54,849 nt of DNA from Anaerolineales bacterium. GTDB lineage: Bacteria; Chloroflexota; Anaerolineae; Anaerolineales; UBA11858. The stretch lies in NCBI GenBank assembly GCA_016783125.1, contig JADHXE010000003.1, positions 1 to 54,849 on the forward strand, in the 5' to 3' direction. Of this stretch, positions 9,647-19,722 are shown in pieces. Each line of letters opens with the position of its first letter. Position 1 is the first letter of the stretch. The notes below the pieces were generated by a model, which worked only from the letters and a program-made list of their open reading frames with translations, was not told the DNA's origin and did not search any database. Made by a program: the position numbers and the translations under genes.

Positions 9647-12013
9647 ATGGCTGATCGGGCCCTGGTATTACATATTTACGCACTCGGAACCCCCGAAGTG
9701 CGCCTGGGAGAACATTTGGTTACTTTTCCCACACAAAAGACTCTGGCGCTATTGGTTTATCTGGCGATTGAGGGGGGCATTCAGCCGCGCGAGCACCTGG
9801 CAACCCTGCTTTGGCCTGAATCCAGCCCCGAGCGCAGCCACGCCAACCTACGCAACACCCTCAACCACCTGCAAACAGGGCTGCGCCGGGTAGACGACCA
9901 ATCATCCCCCTATCTCGTCACAACCCACCACGCACTGGGCCTTAACGCAGACGCCGAAATCGATTTAGACCTGAATACCATAGCGCATGCTTATGCGCTG
10001 GCACGTGCTGACCGTTCTAGCCGGATGGTACCGGAGGGTTCAGCCAGCTTACCAATCCTCCAATCGGCTGCAGACCGCCAGCGCGGTGAATTTCTGGCTG
10101 GTTTTTCCCTGGGAGATGCCCCTGGTTTCGACGATTGGGCTGCCATCCAACGTGAAGTGTGGCACCGCCGTCTGAGTTTGATTCTCGACCGTCTCTCCGA
10201 AATCCAGTTTGCACAGGGCGTGTTTTCTGGTGCTACGGAAACCGCCTCTCATTGGATTGCCCTGGATACGCTGAATGAAGTTGCCTATCGCCGCAAGATG
10301 CGGGCGCATTTCGCGGCTGGCGAACGCGGACAAGCGTTGGAAACTTATCAGGCTTGTGAAGCCATTTTGGCGGCAGAATTGGGCATCGAGCCAGAGCCGG
10401 ACACGGCGTTGTTAGCAAAGAGCATTCGCACACAACCATCACCTGTACATTCGCAAAGTTTTCAACTCGCTCCTCAGGCACGCCGTCCAGATACATCCGT
10501 CGATTTTCTGGAAAACCTGTATGCCGGGCGTGTCAGCGAGTATCAGGCGCTGGTGAATAGCTATGAGCGCACAGCTTCTGGCCAACCTCAGCTTGTGGTA
10601 TTGCGCGGAGAGGCAGGCATTGGCAAAACCCGCCTCGCCCGGAAATTTTTGGCCTGGACCAGTACTCAGGGAGCCGAGTGTTTGCAAGGAGGTGCTTTTG
10701 AGAGCGGCAGCCACTTGCCGTTTCAACCACTGGTAGAGGCTCTCCGGCTGAGGCTTGAACATAAAAACTCGATTGAAGTTCTACTGGATGATGTCTGGCT
10801 GTCCCTGCTGAGTCATCTGATGCCAGAGTTACGCCAACGATATCCGGATTTATCCCCGCATCCTTTAGTGGATTCTTTCTCCGAAGAAGCTGCAAGTCGA
10901 GTCCAATTCTACGAACCCATCGTTCAATATACGCTAGCCCTGACCGAACGAGCACCATTGGTTCTATTCATAGATGATTTGCAGTGGACAGACAGCGCAA
11001 CGTTAGACCTGTTGCAATACGCCGTCCGGCGCTGGAAAGATAGCGCGGCGCGGGTTTTATTGTTGGTCAATCTGCGGTCAGAAGCTTTGCATCCGATGAC
11101 CCAACCTTATCAAGTCGGTGAGTGGTTGACGCACGTTGCCCGTGAGTTGACTCCGGCTCATATCGAGTTAGAGCCGCTGGGGGAACGGGAAACGGTGCAA
11201 ATGATTCTATCGATCCTGTCGCCACCAGCTCCCGACTTCGCCCAATGGTTATATGATGAAACGCGTGGGCAGCCTTTTTACTTGATGGAGACTTTGAAGG
11301 ATTTGCTCGAGCGCCGTGTACTTCATCCCAAACGGCGGGCGGAGGGGCTCTGGACTTTTGCGGTGGACGCTGAACACGAACTTGGGCAAGCAGTGCGGGT
11401 CCCGTCTACCGTGCATGCCGTGATCCGCTCGCGCTTGAATCGCCTCAGCCCTAATGCCTTCAGCCTGTTGGCGGGTGCAGCAGTTCTTGAAAAGCAAATC
11501 ACTTTCGAGCATCTATGCGCCATTGCAAACGTGAATTATGATCTGGCCTTACCTGCCCTGGATGAATTGATCAGCGGTCGCCTCTTATTGGAAGCGGAGC
11601 AACCTGGCGTTGGCAGCACCTATTTTTTCGTCAACGACATGCTTCGCGATGTGGTTTATACCGATGCTGGGGACGCTCGGCGTCGACTTTTCCATCAACG
11701 GGCACTTGAAAACCTAGAAACAGCGGAGGAATCAGCAGCAGTCCTAGCCCACCATGCACTGGCCGCAGGTTTAACTCAAGCAACTTTCCAATACAGTTTA
11801 ATTGCCGGGCAAGAAGCACAACGCATCTCGGCGGTAAATGAGGCCATTGTCCATTTCGAGCGTGCCCACGAGTTGATACAGGATGGCTCAATACTAAACG
11901 ACGTAGATTTGCGTGATCTTTATAAACAGCTAAGTCTAGCCTACAAATTGGGTGGTTATATGGATAAGGCCTTGGCTATGGATGCTGAACTGGAAAAGTT
12001 GATTGGCTCCTAA
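9647..12013 (+). CDS. SARP/BTAD transcriptional regulator with AAA (STAND-like) ATPase domain
   Basis: wHTH start (LGTPEV...LALLVYLA...REHLATLLWP), BTAD (G.FL.GF...F.DW; E.AYR..MR), Walker A GEAGIGKT, Walker B LFIDDLQW, T.G.PFYL.E. Confidence 0.92.
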   Translation: MADRALVLHIYALGTPEVRLGEHLVTFPTQKTLALLVYLAIEGGIQPREHLATLLWPESSPERSHANLRNTLNHLQTGLRRVDDQSSPYLVTTHHALGLNADAEIDLDLNTIAHAYALARADRSSRMVPEGSASLPILQSAADRQRGEFLAGFSLGDAPGFDDWAAIQREVWHRRLSLILDRLSEIQFAQGVFSGATETASHWIALDTLNEVAYRRKMRAHFAAGERGQALETYQACEAILAAELGIEPEPDTALLAKSIRTQPSPVHSQSFQLAPQARRPDTSVDFLENLYAGRVSEYQALVNSYERTASGQPQLVVLRGEAGIGKTRLARKFLAWTSTQGAECLQGGAFESGSHLPFQPLVEALRLRLEHKNSIEVLLDDVWLSLLSHLMPELRQRYPDLSPHPLVDSFSEEAASRVQFYEPIVQYTLALTERAPLVLFIDDLQWTDSATLDLLQYAVRRWKDSAARVLLLVNLRSEALHPMTQPYQVGEWLTHVARELTPAHIELEPLGERETVQMILSILSPPAPDFAQWLYDETRGQPFYLMETLKDLLERRVLHPKRRAEGLWTFAVDAEHELGQAVRVPSTVHAVIRSRLNRLSPNAFSLLAGAAVLEKQITFEHLCAIANVNYDLALPALDELISGRLLLEAEQPGVGSTYFFVNDMLRDVVYTDAGDARRRLFHQRALENLETAEESAAVLAHHALAAGLTQATFQYSLIAGQEAQRISAVNEAIVHFERAHELIQDGSILNDVDLRDLYKQLSLAYKLGGYMDKALAMDAELEKLIGS

Positions 12014-12250
12014 ATGCTATGGAGGCAACTCCCAATTGCCTGGTTATATTATTTGACAAAAGTTGCTCGTGGTGTCCAAAAACCTCATCCCAACATTTTC
12101 GACGTTGATAAAATACTCAATTATGTTTCCAATCGGCCTTTAACCAAAAAAGCCCGGATAAACAAACTTCCCTTCCGAACTTTCTGTGGAGCTGGAATTA
12201 CACCAGGCGGTCCCGACAAATAAAATTAAGCAACAATTTTCCCACATTCC

Positions 12251-12280
12251 TTGACAAAACTGCTCATAAGTGTGTAGAAT
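12251..12280 (+). promoter_or_regulatory. Sigma70-type promoter
   Basis: TTGACA (12251-12256), 18-nt spacer, TAGAAT (12275-12280). Confidence 0.7.
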
Positions 12281-12290
12281 CCTTTTCGTA

Positions 12291-12378
12291 GTGTCCTATC
12301 TGACGGGATTCCCGCGTCTAGCTGCATAATCAGATCAGCAGCAAGATTTCCCGCCCAGATCAGGGCATTTTTTGTTTT
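12291..12378 (+). ncRNA. Putative structured RNA or attenuator hairpin upstream of the recombinase operon
   Basis: Nested pairings gtgtcct/agggcat, atctg/cagat, cggga/tcccg and gctgc/gcagc, followed by a T-run; starts about 10 nt after the -10 box. Confidence 0.5.
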
Positions 12379-12470
12379 AAGCTACTTTTCGTTTCGCGTT
12401 GGCAGTTAGGGCTAGACATCTGCTCTCCAAGCCTAAGAGTGAAACGGACATATAAGAGCAAATAAGAAAG

Positions 12471-12671
12471 ATGAACAAAGATACGAACGTTGAGAATGGT
12501 GGTCAAGCCATTGCCGCACAATCACAAAAATCTGCAGATTCCTTATTACACCATGATATAAGGGATTATGCCGATCCTGAGTATCAAATCCCTTCACCTT
12601 TGATCGCATGGCTGGCGAGGATCAATCAACGATACCTTTCTGAAAATATGCGCGAAGACTTAATAGAGTAG
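12471..12671 (+). CDS. Small hypothetical protein upstream of the recombinase
   Basis: 66-aa ORF ending 8 nt before the recombinase ATG; no recognisable motif. Confidence 0.45.
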   Translation: MNKDTNVENGGQAIAAQSQKSADSLLHHDIRDYADPEYQIPSPLIAWLARINQRYLSENMREDLIE

Positions 12672-12679
12672 CCAATTGT

Positions 12680-14245
12680 ATGCCTTCTGCCAATAATTCT
12701 TCACAGCACTATGCAGCTGCCTATATCCGCTATTCATCAAAAATGCAAGATGAATCATTGAGTCTTGAAGCTCAAGAGCGAATTATCAGGCGAAGAGCAG
12801 AACAAGATGGCAATTTAATCGTGGTTGTCTTTGCGGATAAAGCTCAATCCGCTTATCGCAATAAATATCGTCCAGTACTAAATAGGGCACTTGAAAGTGC
12901 CAAACAGGGCAAGTTCAAAATTCTCTATGTCCATAAACTTGATCGGCTCGCTCGTCGTTTGGAGTGGACTATCGAAATCGCCAAAACCTTAGAAAAATAT
13001 GGGGTCCAGCTAATATCTGTAGATCAAAACTTCGATCGCAACACACCCGATGGCAAACTTCACTTCAACATGATGGGGATGATGGCGGAACATTATTCTG
13101 ATAATCTTAGCCGCGAGGTACACAAGGGCAAATATCAACTTATCATAAATGGGTATCATACCGGAATGTTCCCATGGGGATACGAAAAAACTGTAGACGG
13201 TGAAAAGAAGAAACGTGTTGGCAAGCCCACTCCCCATTTGAAGTATGTCGTCCATGATTTGTTTTCCCGTTACGCCACTGGCCTTTACTCCGATCAACAA
13301 ATGGCTGATTGGCTCAACCAACAAGGCTTCCGTCGCTCAGAAAATCGCTTATTTACCCGAGACAATCTTCGCGATATTCTTCAGAATATCTATTATGCTG
13401 GAAAAGTGCGCTACCGGGGTGCGAAACTTAGCGCCATTGGAAAAAATTACCGAACCATGGGAGGTGAAATTTTCGAGGGGAAACATGACGCCATAATCAG
13501 CATGACAGTATTCAATCGCTGTCAGGCTGTGCGCGCAGAACGCCGTCATAAAGCACCAACTCGACAAATAACTCGTCATGTCTATTACGTCAATGGCATG
13601 ATCGACTGTGTCCACTGTGGCCGCAGCATGCGAGCACAAAGTTCAAGGTCTCACCGCTACTATCGAGAAGCATCAAAAGGGAAAGGCTATTTAGACTGTC
13701 CCATGCTGCAAAGAAGCGTTCGGGCTGATGTGATCGATGCGCAGATCGGCCGTATCATGAAATTACTGCGATTGCCTGACAACTGGGAATCCGCGGTGAA
13801 GACTCTCCTAAAGAAGAATGAGGACTACACAAATCCCGAGGCAGAACGCGCCCGCATTCGCAAACAAATACGCGACATGCGCGAAATGAAAAGCCACGGG
13901 TTGTATGAGGGTGAGGATCATATATTTTGGCGGGATGTCGAAGTTCTGCAAGAAAAGCTATCCAGGCTTAAAGATATCAAGGAACCAACTGTCAACAAGG
14001 CTGCCAAAAAACTACTGGATATTCAAAAGGCCTGGGATTTGGCTACTCGTCAGGAACGTGAAGAATTGGTCAAAATGCTGCTTTCAAGAGTCGGTTGTGA
14101 TATCAAAGAAAAACGCATCACTTGGATTGAACCCGAACCCGAATTTATCCCTCTTATCCAGTTGATGGACGTGCTGATTCCACAAGATAATGGCAAATGG
14201 CTCGTTCCCCAATCATTGACCAATGGGACTCTAAGGGACATATAG
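12680..14245 (+). CDS. Large serine recombinase (integrase)
   Basis: YIRYSS catalytic Ser, LDRLAR, PWGY, recombinase domain (L.N..YAG; G.HDAIIS..F), Zn ribbon CVHCG...C and a coiled-coil CTD. Confidence 0.95.
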   Translation: MPSANNSSQHYAAAYIRYSSKMQDESLSLEAQERIIRRRAEQDGNLIVVVFADKAQSAYRNKYRPVLNRALESAKQGKFKILYVHKLDRLARRLEWTIEIAKTLEKYGVQLISVDQNFDRNTPDGKLHFNMMGMMAEHYSDNLSREVHKGKYQLIINGYHTGMFPWGYEKTVDGEKKKRVGKPTPHLKYVVHDLFSRYATGLYSDQQMADWLNQQGFRRSENRLFTRDNLRDILQNIYYAGKVRYRGAKLSAIGKNYRTMGGEIFEGKHDAIISMTVFNRCQAVRAERRHKAPTRQITRHVYYVNGMIDCVHCGRSMRAQSSRSHRYYREASKGKGYLDCPMLQRSVRADVIDAQIGRIMKLLRLPDNWESAVKTLLKKNEDYTNPEAERARIRKQIRDMREMKSHGLYEGEDHIFWRDVEVLQEKLSRLKDIKEPTVNKAAKKLLDIQKAWDLATRQEREELVKMLLSRVGCDIKEKRITWIEPEPEFIPLIQLMDVLIPQDNGKWLVPQSLTNGTLRDI

Positions 14246-14325
14246 GAACAATCGTCTATTCTCGATGGTAGCCTAATTGACCTATGGTCCCATCCTGGTT
14301 ACAATTGCCCACAATGGACTTATTA

Positions 14326-14366
14326 ACGCAAAAATCGCCCAGAGGCGACTGAGCGATTTTCAGCGT
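14326..14366. terminator. Hairpin, probable bidirectional terminator
   Basis: aaaatcgc-ccag...ctga-gcgatttt, between the recombinase end and the convergent tRNA fragment. Confidence 0.5.
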
Positions 14367-14438
14367 AAGTCCTTTTACAAACGAAGCGTTTATTCATTTG
14401 ATCAGAGCAGTCAAGCTCTTGAGGACATGTTACGCTCT

Positions 14439-14486
14439 GCGGTCCCGACGGGATTCGAACCCGCGATCTCCGGCTTGACAGGCCGG
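14439..14486 (-). pseudogene. 3' two-thirds of tRNA-Asp(GTC); att-type fragment lacking the 5' acceptor strand and D-arm
   Basis: Reverse complement CCGGC-CTGTCAA-GCCGG AGATC GCGGG-TTCGAAT-CCCGT CGGGACC-GC; no GGTCCCG or D-arm upstream. Confidence 0.85.
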
Positions 14487-14601
14487 ATGAATCGTTGGCA
14501 GCCACAGAGAGCAACACAAGCGCGCTTGCAATAGGTTAATATAAAAAAATCACATCGCCATCTCCGATAATTGCAAACATCAACATATTTGCGACAAGGT
14601 A

Positions 14602-14630
14602 TTGACATTTTACCATCCCCCATCTACACT
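14602..14630 (+). promoter_or_regulatory. Sigma70 promoter giving a probable leaderless comM transcript
   Basis: TTGACA-17-TACACT; ATG follows after 6 nt; no SD sequence. Confidence 0.7.
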
Positions 14631-14636
14631 TGACTC

Positions 14637-16160
14637 ATGCTTGCCCGCGTATTCTCCTGCGCCGTGATCGGTCTTGATGGGGTCGTCGTCGAAGTCGAGG
14701 TCGATACCAGCAGCGGCTTACCCAAAACAACCATTGTAGGCTTGCCCGATGCCGCCGTGCAGGAGAGCCGCGAGCGGGTCGAAGCTGCTGTAAAAAATTC
14801 CGGCTTCATGTTTCCGCGCAAACGCGTGACGGTCAATCTGGCGCCAGCCACGGTGCGCAAAGCTGGCCCGGTCTACGATTTGCCCATCGCCGTAGGGGTT
14901 CTGATTGCCACCGCCCAACTACCTCCCCATGCTTTAGATGATGCCTTGGTTATTGGAGAACTTTCCCTTGACGGGGGCGTGCGCCATGTGCGCGGCGTAC
15001 TGCCTATGGCCGCCCTGGCTCGCGCAGAAGGTATTCGCCAGATTTTTGTACCCGAGGTGGACGCGCCCGAAGCCGCCCTGATCCCTGACCTCGAAGTGAT
15101 CCCTGTAACCTCACTGGCTGCGCTCTATGACCACCTCACAGGTGGGCCTATGTTATCCCCTAACATAGATACTGTCTCCGAGGGGGCTTACGACACAACC
15201 CCTATCACCGATTTCCAAGAGATCAAAGGCCAGGAGCAAGTCAAACGCGCTTTGGAAGTTGCCTGTGCTGGAAATCATAATTTACTGCTGATCGGCCCAC
15301 CGGGGTCAGGCAAAACCCTGCTGGCGCGCGCCCTGCCCGGTATCCTGCCCCACATGACCATCGACGAAGCCCTGGATGTCACCCGTGTCTACTCCATCGC
15401 CGATCAACTCCCCTCGGACGTGCCCCTGATCCAGCAGCGCCCCTTCCGCGCCCCACACCATACCATCTCGCACGCCGGGCTGGTCGGCGGCGGCAACTGG
15501 CCCACCCCCGGCGAAATCTCCCTGGCGCATCGAGGTGTGCTCTTCCTGGACGAATTTCCCGAGTTCGGCAGCCGCGTCCTGGAAGTCTTGCGCCAGCCCC
15601 TGGAAGACAAACTCGTCACCATTTCCCGCGCTCAAGGCTCGCTGACCTTTCCATCTAATTTCCAACTCATCGCCGCCATGAACCCCTGTCCGTGTGGTTA
15701 TTCAAATGACCCCATCAAAGAATGCACCTGCTCCAACCAGGTCATCACCCGCTACCAGAAACGCATCTCCGGCCCGATGCTCGACCGCATCGACATCCAC
15801 ATCGAGGTGCCGCGCGTCGATTATGACAAACTCAGCGACGACCGTCTTGGGGAACCCTCCTCAGAGATCCAAAACCGCGTGGAAGCCGCCCGCGAGCAAC
15901 AGCGCAAGCGATTCGAGGGCACCAGCCTCTCCTGCAATGCCGATATGGGGCCCGCCGAACTGCGCCAGTACTGCCCCCTGGATCAAACCGGCCGCTCCCT
16001 GCTGCGCAGCGCTATGAGCCAGCTGCAACTCTCGGCGCGTGCCTATCACCGCGTGCTCAAGCTGGCGCGCACCATCGCCGATCTGGCCGGGGAAAGTGAA
16101 ATCGCCCCCGCACATCTGGCGGAGGCGCTGCAGTACCGGCCGAAGTTAGAGTTGATGTAG
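14637..16160 (+). CDS. comM: YifB/ComM Mg-chelatase-like AAA+ ATPase
   Basis: IVGLPDAAVQESRERV, VNLAPA, GELSLDG, GPPGSGKT, RPFRAPHHT, PGEISLAHRGVLFLDE, AMNPCPCG, LSARAY. Confidence 0.95.
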   Translation: MLARVFSCAVIGLDGVVVEVEVDTSSGLPKTTIVGLPDAAVQESRERVEAAVKNSGFMFPRKRVTVNLAPATVRKAGPVYDLPIAVGVLIATAQLPPHALDDALVIGELSLDGGVRHVRGVLPMAALARAEGIRQIFVPEVDAPEAALIPDLEVIPVTSLAALYDHLTGGPMLSPNIDTVSEGAYDTTPITDFQEIKGQEQVKRALEVACAGNHNLLLIGPPGSGKTLLARALPGILPHMTIDEALDVTRVYSIADQLPSDVPLIQQRPFRAPHHTISHAGLVGGGNWPTPGEISLAHRGVLFLDEFPEFGSRVLEVLRQPLEDKLVTISRAQGSLTFPSNFQLIAAMNPCPCGYSNDPIKECTCSNQVITRYQKRISGPMLDRIDIHIEVPRVDYDKLSDDRLGEPSSEIQNRVEAAREQQRKRFEGTSLSCNADMGPAELRQYCPLDQTGRSLLRSAMSQLQLSARAYHRVLKLARTIADLAGESEIAPAHLAEALQYRPKLELM

Positions 16161-16280
16161 GCCACGGATGGCGGTATGCCATTCGCCTGTCAACGCAAAT
16201 ATCGCGGGGGCGCTGCCGACATCTGCGCGAGTCAAGACGGGGGCATGGGTTTCCTCTTCGATTTTGGTTTGGATGATGAA

Positions 16281-16357
16281 GATTAGGTATTGGGTATTGG
16301 GTATTGGGTATTGGATATTAGATGTTGGATGTGGGAATATCCAATCTCTAATATCTA
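16281..16357. repeat. (GGGTATT)n heptamer tandem repeat with an inverted partner arm
   Basis: ggtattgggtattgggtattgggtattggatatt ... aatatccaatctctaatatct. Confidence 0.85.
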
Positions 16358-18395: not shown

Positions 18396-19722
18396 ACGGC
18401 CCAGCGACTGCCACCGCCAGCTTATCAGGATGCAGGTATTTACTGGCCGCGGCCAGCACCCCCTCAGGAGTCACCGCCTCGACCCGCTCTGCGTAACGCA
18501 GGTAGTAATCTAATCCCAGGTCATAGCGCTCCAAATTGAGCAGCGCACCGGACACCCCGCCATTGGACTCCAACGCCAGAGGCAGCCGCCCGATGAAATT
18601 GGCCTTGCTGTCGTTCAACTCATCCTCATCCACCGGCTCAGTCACAAAGCGCTTGATCTCAGCCCGGATCAACTCGATAGCCTTCTCGACATTCTCCGGG
18701 TTGACGCCCGCGCTCACCGACCAGGGTCCCGGCCCCATACCCGCACTCATCCGGCTGAACGCATAATAAGCCAGCCCAGCTTTCTCTCGCACAGCTTCAC
18801 CGATGCGCCCCATCATACCAAATTGTCCGAAAATGCTGTTCCCCAAGGCGGCATCGAAAAATTCTTCCGCACTGCGTGAAGGACCCGCCACACCCAAGAT
18901 GATGTCCGCTTGAGTCTTGCCTGGGATATCCACCCGTTGAGTTACCAGTTCCTCGAGCGGGGTGACGGACGGGAGTTGAGGCGGGTGCGGTTGATTGGGG
19001 TTTGTCCAATCTCCCAGGGCTGAGCGCACCTTTTCGACGGCATCTTCCGGGGCCACCGCACCGACCACGGCAACCACCATACCGCGCGGCCCATAGTGCT
19101 TCTGGTGGAAATCAACCAGGTCCTGGCGAGTGATGGCCTGGATCATCTCGGGGTAGCCATCCTCCGGGCGGCTGTAAGGGTGATCTTTGTAGACAATCTG
19201 ATCAAAGGTCAAATCGGCCATATCGCGCGTATCCTGAGCGCGCAGCGTCAGCCCGGTCAGCAGCTGGGCCCGCAGGCGCTCGATCTGAGTCTCAGGAAAG
19301 ACCGGCTGGCGCAATCCTTCAGAGAGTAATTCCAGCAGCAAGGGCAAATCCTCGGCCAACGATTTGCTCCCAAAGCCGGTTGTATGGGTAGCACCATTGA
19401 AACCCAGGCTGGCTCCCACAGACTCTAAGGCCTGGTAAATCCCCTGGAAGTCTCGTTTCTCGGTGCCGCGCATCAGCGCCGCAGAGACGAAATCCGCTAA
19501 GCCCAACTTCTCATCAGAATCGAACAACCCTCCCACAGTGACATAACCGCTCACTGTGATCGAGGGACTGTTGAAATTGGATCGAGCCAGCACGGTGATG
19601 CCGTTAGGGAGATCAACGCGGGTGATGTCGTCCGGGCCAGGTAGTGATGATTGGGTATTGGGTATTGGGTATTGGGTATTGAATATCGAATATCCAATAT
19701 CTAATCTCTTTGCGCGTTTCAT
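18394..19722 (-). CDS. M16 family peptidase, non-catalytic subunit
   Basis: LPNGITVL, GLA.F....LMRGT without HXXEH, R....VREK.GLAYY; N-terminus encoded by a GGGTATT repeat. Confidence 0.9.
   Translation of the reverse strand: MKRAKRLDIGYSIFNTQYPIPNTQSSLPGPDDITRVDLPNGITVLARSNFNSPSITVSGYVTVGGLFDSDEKLGLADFVSAALMRGTEKRDFQGIYQALESVGASLGFNGATHTTGFGSKSLAEDLPLLLELLSEGLRQPVFPETQIERLRAQLLTGLTLRAQDTRDMADLTFDQIVYKDHPYSRPEDGYPEMIQAITRQDLVDFHQKHYGPRGMVVAVVGAVAPEDAVEKVRSALGDWTNPNQPHPPQLPSVTPLEELVTQRVDIPGKTQADIILGVAGPSRSAEEFFDAALGNSIFGQFGMMGRIGEAVREKAGLAYYAFSRMSAGMGPGPWSVSAGVNPENVEKAIELIRAEIKRFVTEPVDEDELNDSKANFIGRLPLALESNGGVSGALLNLERYDLGLDYYLRYAERVEAVTPEGVLAAASKYLHPDKLAVAVAGP
19649..19705. repeat. (GGGTATT)n repeat inside the 5' end of the M16 gene
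   Basis: gggtatt x4 then gaatatcgaatatccaatatct; translates as LDIGYSIFNTQYPIPNTQ. Confidence 0.85.

Follow-up and report, generated by a model that had tools for sequence, protein, structure and literature searches.

A structured leader RNA upstream of a large serine recombinase in Anaerolineales, probably the attenuator of an ICE-like transfer operon

We analyzed a 54,849-nt stretch of DNA from an Anaerolineales bacterium (hereafter, the window), in which a hairpin RNA lies upstream of a large serine recombinase gene. This leader is a real, previously uncatalogued RNA, for which neither an Rfam match nor a pertinent paper was found. It is probably the promoter-proximal terminator/attenuator of an ICE-like transfer operon, which would have been inherited by a 2.2-kb deletion derivative carrying the recombinase. 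The analysis adds a structured leader family without an Rfam match, heading a Tad/large-ATPase operon; relatives of its ATPase occur in 39 of the 401 class genomes. It also clears away the attractive but misleading idea that the serine recombinase is RNA-guided.

The leader RNA and its family

A promoter-driven hairpin had been described upstream of the recombinase in the first-pass annotation, which was made from the sequence alone. A predicted promoter and a rod-like fold were both found there, and the sequence reads as described. The promoter is of the sigma-70 type (12251..12280, plus strand), with a -35 box TTGACA, an 18-nt spacer and a -10 box TAGAAT. It matches the consensus at 11 of 12 positions and ranks top of 10 sites within 11000-15500. 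Transcription would start at about 12286-12288. The leader RNA (12286..12378, plus strand), a predicted promoter-proximal terminator/attenuator, folds as a single imperfect rod with an energy of -31.6 kcal/mol (z -3.88), which was matched by none of 200 shuffles. The rod occupies 12290-12369, with the closing stem immediately next to a U tract at 12368-12378. A scan for short-loop terminators missed it. The earlier suggestion that a structured, promoter-driven RNA could attenuate the integrase is supported.

To the left of the promoter lies an 11-bp core (12207..12217, no strand assigned), which equals the 3' end of tRNA-Asp and would be the left attachment site of the 2.2-kb cassette. It is preceded by a terminator-like hairpin for the minus (tRNA) strand (12146..12206), which junction comparison places at the end of the left neighbor; the same type of hairpin adjoins this core at other junctions in the genus. 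The DNA contigs of two sequencing runs cover 11600-12366 with no differences. Thus, the left junction is not an assembly artefact. Separately, a weak antisense promoter-like site was seen within the 66-aa ORF that precedes the recombinase (12506-12478, minus strand). It is not conserved, such sites being present in 2 of 5 recombinase-type copies and 4 of 16 other copies, at differing places.

The leader family consists of 21 close copies and one distant copy (L047), the latter obtained by a covariance-model search. The genome of the window contains four copies, and the three others are 80-86% identical to that in the window, promoter included. In the genus, 16 copies were found in 6 of 14 genomes. 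Nine metagenome loci gave five new full copies, the other four being duplicates or partial. Within the genus the leader sequence is highly conserved; family-wide, the -35 box is invariant and the spacer varies. The 8-bp closing stem followed by the U tract is present in all close copies. Fifteen of the 21 close copies head an operon that begins with a lipoprotein or membrane-protein gene, and six head the 66-aa ORF/recombinase cassette. In L008 (identical to L038), the leader is accompanied by a full recombinase gene, 93% identical to that of the window. In L006 and L012, the leader is followed by the 66-aa ORF and the start of the recombinase, and L016 and L007 were assigned to the recombinase type from short downstream sequence at contig ends. 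In the leader tree, L018 groups with the recombinase-type leaders, with weak support (36/93).

No Rfam family matched the hairpin at E values up to 5, and there was no gathering-level match among 16 leader loci. A 19-nt pattern had no match in viral contigs. Beyond the genus, the covariance model gave four weak matches over 150 genomes of the order and one in the family search (L048), which proved on inspection to be a plain terminator and was discarded. A weak match at a recombinase-homologue locus (L209, E 0.021) was excluded from the RNA counts. A junk row (L018:1701-1749) was removed from alignment A2 before pairs were counted. Within the genus, no pair showed covariation on both sides, and 445 of 500 shuffles paired as well. 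Both-side changes in the closing stem were observed in L047, L110 and L111, that is, in three distant rows of a model-fitted alignment, where 52 nt underlie the homology of L110 and L111. The leaders of L110 and L111 resemble the outer stem alone.

Leader-headed Tad/large-ATPase operons and the predicted attenuator

Where contigs are long enough, the operon behind the other leader copies begins with the lipoprotein or membrane-protein gene, followed by a gene for a 1160-aa P-loop ATPase (NF033849). This ATPase has weak TraC and HerA matches and is presumably 'VirB4-like'. The operon continues with CpaB/SAF, a ParA-type ATPase, a TadA-type ATPase, a T2SS-F protein, an A24 peptidase and a TadE/G-like protein. 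In one genome (G186), it is followed by a tyrosine recombinase, a methylase, a beta clamp, RadC and an SNF2 helicase, which is a mobile-element gene set. Since no relaxase or coupling protein was identified, 'conjugative' is a presumptive label. We found no paper on Tad/large-ATPase elements in Chloroflexota.

The regions upstream of the ATPase operons were scanned for a promoter followed by a short leader and a terminator. In 10 of 32 usable regions, 11 sense matches and no antisense match were detected, against 3.6 expected from the rate in the genome of the window; the scan thresholds were chosen after an initial inspection, and the genomes are related to one another. Ten of the 11 sense matches immediately precede the opening gene of the run that leads to the ATPase. 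The other 22 regions, including all eight of one genus, have no such match. The distance from promoter to hairpin ranges from 28 to 213 nt across the class: the layout is kept, and length and sequence are not. In L018/L150, the order is core, promoter, hairpin and then the Tad/ATPase operon. In genome G145, a leader-headed operon and an orthologous small ORF/recombinase pair (44% identity) are located on one strand, about 39 kb apart. The element ends at tRNA-Ser, and its left att core was not found within 80 kb.

Several further features of these operons were observed. A divergent gene for an integron-integrase-like tyrosine recombinase, common to many Tad-type copies, lies just upstream of the Tad-operon promoter (L013, L017, L019, L010, L014 and L029). 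In Tad-type promoters (for example, those of L013 and L010), the -10 box lies between the halves of a G-rich/C-rich inverted repeat, a possible operator; this repeat is weak in the recombinase-type copies. Two operons of genus g111 (L102 and L103) have no leader terminator and carry a GAAC-N4-GTTC-like box after the promoter, which we take to be a LexA-type site. These operons are possibly under SOS control instead of attenuation. In G107 and G186 (L171 and L173), a second short hairpin with a U tract, preceded by a -10-like box, occurs in the middle of the element and is nearly identical in both genomes.

The leader has a GC-rich stem directly before the U tract, as intrinsic terminators do. 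In each of the 21 close copies, the fold with a short local 3' terminator is less stable than the rod, by 3.5-10.1 kcal/mol. Given this energy gap, and with the strand beside the U tract forming part of the rod, the rod is probably the terminator and not an antiterminator. In constrained folds, blocking the 5' arm left only a 4-bp hairpin before the U tract. When only the tRNA-like segment described below (positions 17-34) was blocked, the closing stem at the U tract still formed. Prefix folds suggest that early transcripts form small 5' hairpins, which include the tRNA-like segment.

We propose that the RNA acts in cis, as the 5' leader that heads the main transfer operon in an ICE-like family of Anaerolineae. 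The strong promoter would fire, and the nascent RNA would zip into the long imperfect rod. The closing stem and the U tract would then stop most transcripts at about 85-90 nt. Read-through might follow when transient hairpins of the 5' arm itself, an antisense RNA or an element-encoded factor keep that arm apart. A search for an antiterminator gave none: the genome has one NusG only and no paralogue, and no antisense promoter is conserved. Processive antitermination was considered and dropped; the internal terminators of operons in the genome of the window occur at or below the control rate.

There is a precedent for attenuators in such a place. The conjugation operon of pLS20 is headed by cATT, a zipper-type attenuator, whose zipped form is the antiterminator (PMC13401043). 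Both leaders stand before the first gene of an operon, for transfer in pLS20 and presumably so here. In cATT, a weak 5' hairpin and a 3' hairpin with its U tract are complementary, flank a long central stem and zip into a rod; in silico, complementarity of 5' and 3' hairpins across the central stem was likewise seen in our prefix and constrained folds. However, a zipped antiterminator nearly equal in energy to the terminator was not found here. The polarity is probably reversed relative to pLS20, since here it is the lower-energy rod, in every close copy, that closes at the U tract. The cATT leader is 456 nt long, against about 90 nt here. The first gene here encodes a lipoprotein, a membrane protein or the 66-aa ORF, none with a family, whereas pLS20 has conAn1/conAn2. 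The host here belongs to Chloroflexota, and one leader lineage would have moved before a recombinase. The 'mobile attenuators' (PMC2965389) are likewise conserved premature terminators of mobile-element origin upstream of unrelated genes. They are, however, terminators that belong to insertion sequences or to prophages, whereas the present leader travels with its own promoter from an ICE-like operon.

Likeness to the tRNA-Asp T arm and alternative readings of the RNA

The segment at 12302..12319 (plus strand) resembles the antisense of the tRNA-Asp T arm and comprises an invariant 5' strand of a stem and a variable bulge. It had drawn attention as a copy of the tRNA piece at 14447-14469. Both stretches read exactly as stated in the first-pass annotation, and the 11-bp core adjoining the tRNA piece is present at 12207 and 14439. 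The match is 10 nt long when exact and 18 nt when gapped. Part of it lies within the predicted stem, as had been recognized: its first seven letters include the 5' strand of the stem, and the invariant matched letters are paired. In folding, the segment can also form a transient local hairpin. The match score was equalled by 40 of 2000 dinucleotide shuffles and by 109 of 3507 random 128-nt tiles of the genome. With gaps lenient enough for the full gapped match, 258 of 6863 tiles scored as well. An exact match of at least 10 nt was rarer, appearing in 1 of 400 shuffles. tRNA-Gly(GCC) fits the same 10 nt equally well. Because of these controls and the fit of tRNA-Gly(GCC), the match is not target-specific and, by one comparison, is mildly above chance. 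The claim that the hairpin carries a meaningful copy of the target site is not borne out, since its score is equalled in 2-4% of controls and the 10 nt also occur in tRNA-Gly. The likeness looks incidental rather than that of a guide; a GC-rich stem arm simply resembles a T arm.

The 10-nt match is kept in 6 of the 22 copies, namely in five of the six recombinase-type copies, which form one clade, and in one of the 16 others; this skew is the strongest point for the first-pass annotation. L008 has the same core as the window and the 93% identical recombinase, and only 7 nt of the match. L018 lies directly to the right of the same tRNA-Asp core, and its match score is below that of most random tiles. 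In L047, the arm and its partner strand change together, so that the stem is kept and the tRNA likeness is lost; no core or tRNA piece was found within 20 kb. Under lenient gaps, 15 of the 22 copies score like ordinary tiles. Among 37 loci with recombinase homologues and flanks of up to 1.5 kb, a strong leader match was detected at two, the window and L038. Homologues without a strong match include L202 (77% identity, same core) and L188 (50%, tRNA-Asp). The small ORF is kept by orthologues of 44-50% identity at tRNA-Ser and tRNA-Asp, and three of them have another upstream hairpin in common, whatever their target. The leader of the G145 operon has no match to its tRNA-Ser, 1128 of 2293 tiles being as good. 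A second guide-like segment was not found, with at most 6 nt matching the other att arms. Two expectations set out in the first-pass annotation, that the RNA would recur with homologous recombinases and that its segment would follow the insertion site, accordingly failed at 35 of the 37 loci and in L008, L018 and G145, respectively. As an aside, related recombinases (L183-L185, L188, L190 and L193) switch between tRNA-Asp and tRNA-Ser with similar sequence just before the core, and are useful for studying target choice.

Four other readings of the RNA were weighed against these data. That the RNA guides the serine recombinase to its target, as the bridge RNA does for IS110, is scarcely credible. 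The bridge RNA guides a recombinase and has unpaired segments for both target and donor, which vary with the target. The likeness to it is that a recombinase gene is preceded by a non-coding RNA, part of which matches the DNA beside the core. However, the recombinase here is of the serine type, the single match is partial and partly paired, there is no donor-binding segment, and no covariation with the target was seen. Moreover, most homologues, including L202 and L188, have no strong match, and the orthologues at tRNA-Ser and tRNA-Asp share one hairpin that is different from the present one. Nothing pertinent on RNA-guided serine recombinases was found in the portion of the literature accessible to us. 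A tRNA-responsive attenuator, in which pairing of the 5' arm with tRNA-Asp or a 3' piece of it would switch expression of the recombinase, is very unlikely, although the leader is antisense to the T arm and most recombinase-type copies keep the 10 nt. The cofold gain is 0 to -4.1 kcal/mol before tertiary structure or modification is considered, the closing stem beside the U tract is spared when the matched segment is blocked, and L008 retains only 7 nt. T-box leaders sense tRNA through a Stem I specifier and a T-box bulge that pairs with the tRNA 3' end; here, the complementarity is to the T arm, and no T-box or other Rfam family was matched down to E 5.

The 5' arm might instead be a degenerate att/T-arm copy that an inserted promoter segment pushed away from the core and that was later taken into the stem. 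This is improbable, if somewhat less so than tRNA sensing, and it would concern the history of the arm, not its function. It is retained because at most other junctions the tRNA-Asp core runs on into GGG and a degenerate T arm; the two junctions beside a hairpin end after the 11 bp, with T-arm-like letters about 85 nt later, and by eye the att arm of L032 resembles the Tad-type arm in two blocks. On the other hand, the match is within reach of ordinary controls and most copies are no better than tiles, the stem of L047 is kept by compensatory change with no core or tRNA piece within 20 kb, and none of the core junctions listed has a crossover inside the hairpin. A stand-alone, trans-acting small RNA of about 90 nt, with the downstream genes served by another promoter or by leak, is the least improbable of the four, yet still unlikely. 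The strong promoter, the stable fold, the U tract and the high conservation within the genus would suit such an RNA. However, the leader always sits immediately 5' of a first gene that it shares a strand with, and a ribosome site often comes a few bases past the U tract; leaders across the class have a common layout but neither a common length nor a common sequence; and the promoter scan detected no further promoter-like site in sense orientation from the leader to the 66-aa ORF.

The recombinase cassette and its surroundings

The 2.2-kb cassette, bounded by the 11-bp core on both sides, contains the 66-aa ORF (12471..12671, plus strand) and the gene for a 521-aa large serine recombinase (12680..14245, plus strand). 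The recombinase has the Resolvase, Recombinase and Zn-ribbon domains typical of its class, together with the flanking core repeat; its Zn ribbon scores 25.1 bits, just below the cut-off of 25.3. Between the two full recombinase genes compared, 53 of 93 changes are at third codon positions. A terminator-like hairpin (14333..14350, minus strand) lies between the recombinase and the right core copy (14439-14449), which belongs to a 48-nt 3' piece of tRNA-Asp(GTC) (14439..14486, minus strand). This piece is identical to the 3' part of a full tRNA-Asp gene on contig C318 of the same genome. The core adjoins the promoter in only one of the five recombinase-type copies having upstream DNA. No excised-circle joint was found in the DNA contigs, which show presence and not absence.

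The 66-aa ORF is conserved upstream of orthologous recombinases, and a C-terminal motif of its protein is conserved in nine homologues. No Pfam or NCBIfam family was matched, and an Atlas search gave no usable match. Complex prediction placed the 66-aa protein on recombinase residues 365-380 and 443-467, with a score of 0.78 against 0.45 for the best control; 116 of 157 solved pairs and 2 of 215 mismatched pairs attain the mark used, counts that apply only roughly with the alignments used here. The runs agreed in at least 78% of contacts, with a partner pLDDT of at least 63. These residues would flank the coiled coil. Known directionality factors are predicted to bind at the coiled coil (10.1101/2024.06.11.598349). 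The cassette resembles such pairs in the domain order of the recombinase and in a small partner predicted on either side of the coiled coil. It differs in that the 66-aa protein belongs to no Pfam or NCBIfam family, and its function is a prediction from modeling. The 66-aa ORF is a predicted recombination directionality factor. Together with the recombinase it forms a candidate pair within the cassette, for which att sites are predicted.

Returning to the attenuator proposal, a deletion would have fused the left end of an element (core, promoter and leader) to its right end (66-aa ORF, recombinase and core). L018 exemplifies such a left end and G145 an operon and a recombinase pair in one element; ends of this kind, once joined, yield the cassette. 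Given the predicted role of the 66-aa protein, the leader would now gate an excision unit composed of the putative directionality factor and the recombinase. Beyond this, it is conceivable, but we hold it only tentatively, that the cassette is a satellite of co-resident Tad/ATPase elements, which excises only on an antitermination signal encoded by the helper. The promoter and leader of the helper, placed before the directionality factor and recombinase genes, would then act as an eavesdropping switch at the RNA level. Three of the four cassette-bearing genomes (G000, G004 and G008) also carry Tad-type leader copies; in the fourth (G002), none was found. The accessible literature yielded nothing pertinent on such satellite coupling. 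If the leader is opened in trans, the cassette would provide a compact test of a minimal element that times its excision to a helper.

On the right side, 14450-14600 is not bridged by any of the pieces listed. At 14479-14523 (minus strand), the tRNA-Asp piece passes through an 8-bp microhomology into 45 nt of gene-like coding sequence. These 45 nt translate like the C-terminal part of a gene on contigs C268 and C281, presumably ComEC-like; in the C268 copy, 10 of 15 residues are identical, with several synonymous changes. comM comes after this stretch, and the relatives have no tRNA piece upstream of comM. The junction is either a rearrangement or an assembly chimera.

The 3' end of tRNA-Asp in the genus (L132-L169) is a hotspot of tandem elements, with many junctions that have the core in common. 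Each element end brings a terminator-like hairpin for the tRNA strand, and the other ends carry degenerate T-arm copies. In a metagenome locus (L026), a copy of the cassette, over the parts compared, is followed by the core and then by the end of another element, with no tRNA piece. Thus, the cassette occupies different positions in such arrays. Two arrays of a 7-bp tandem unit were also observed in the window (16263-16332 and 19631-19700), downstream of comM and near M16 peptidase genes.
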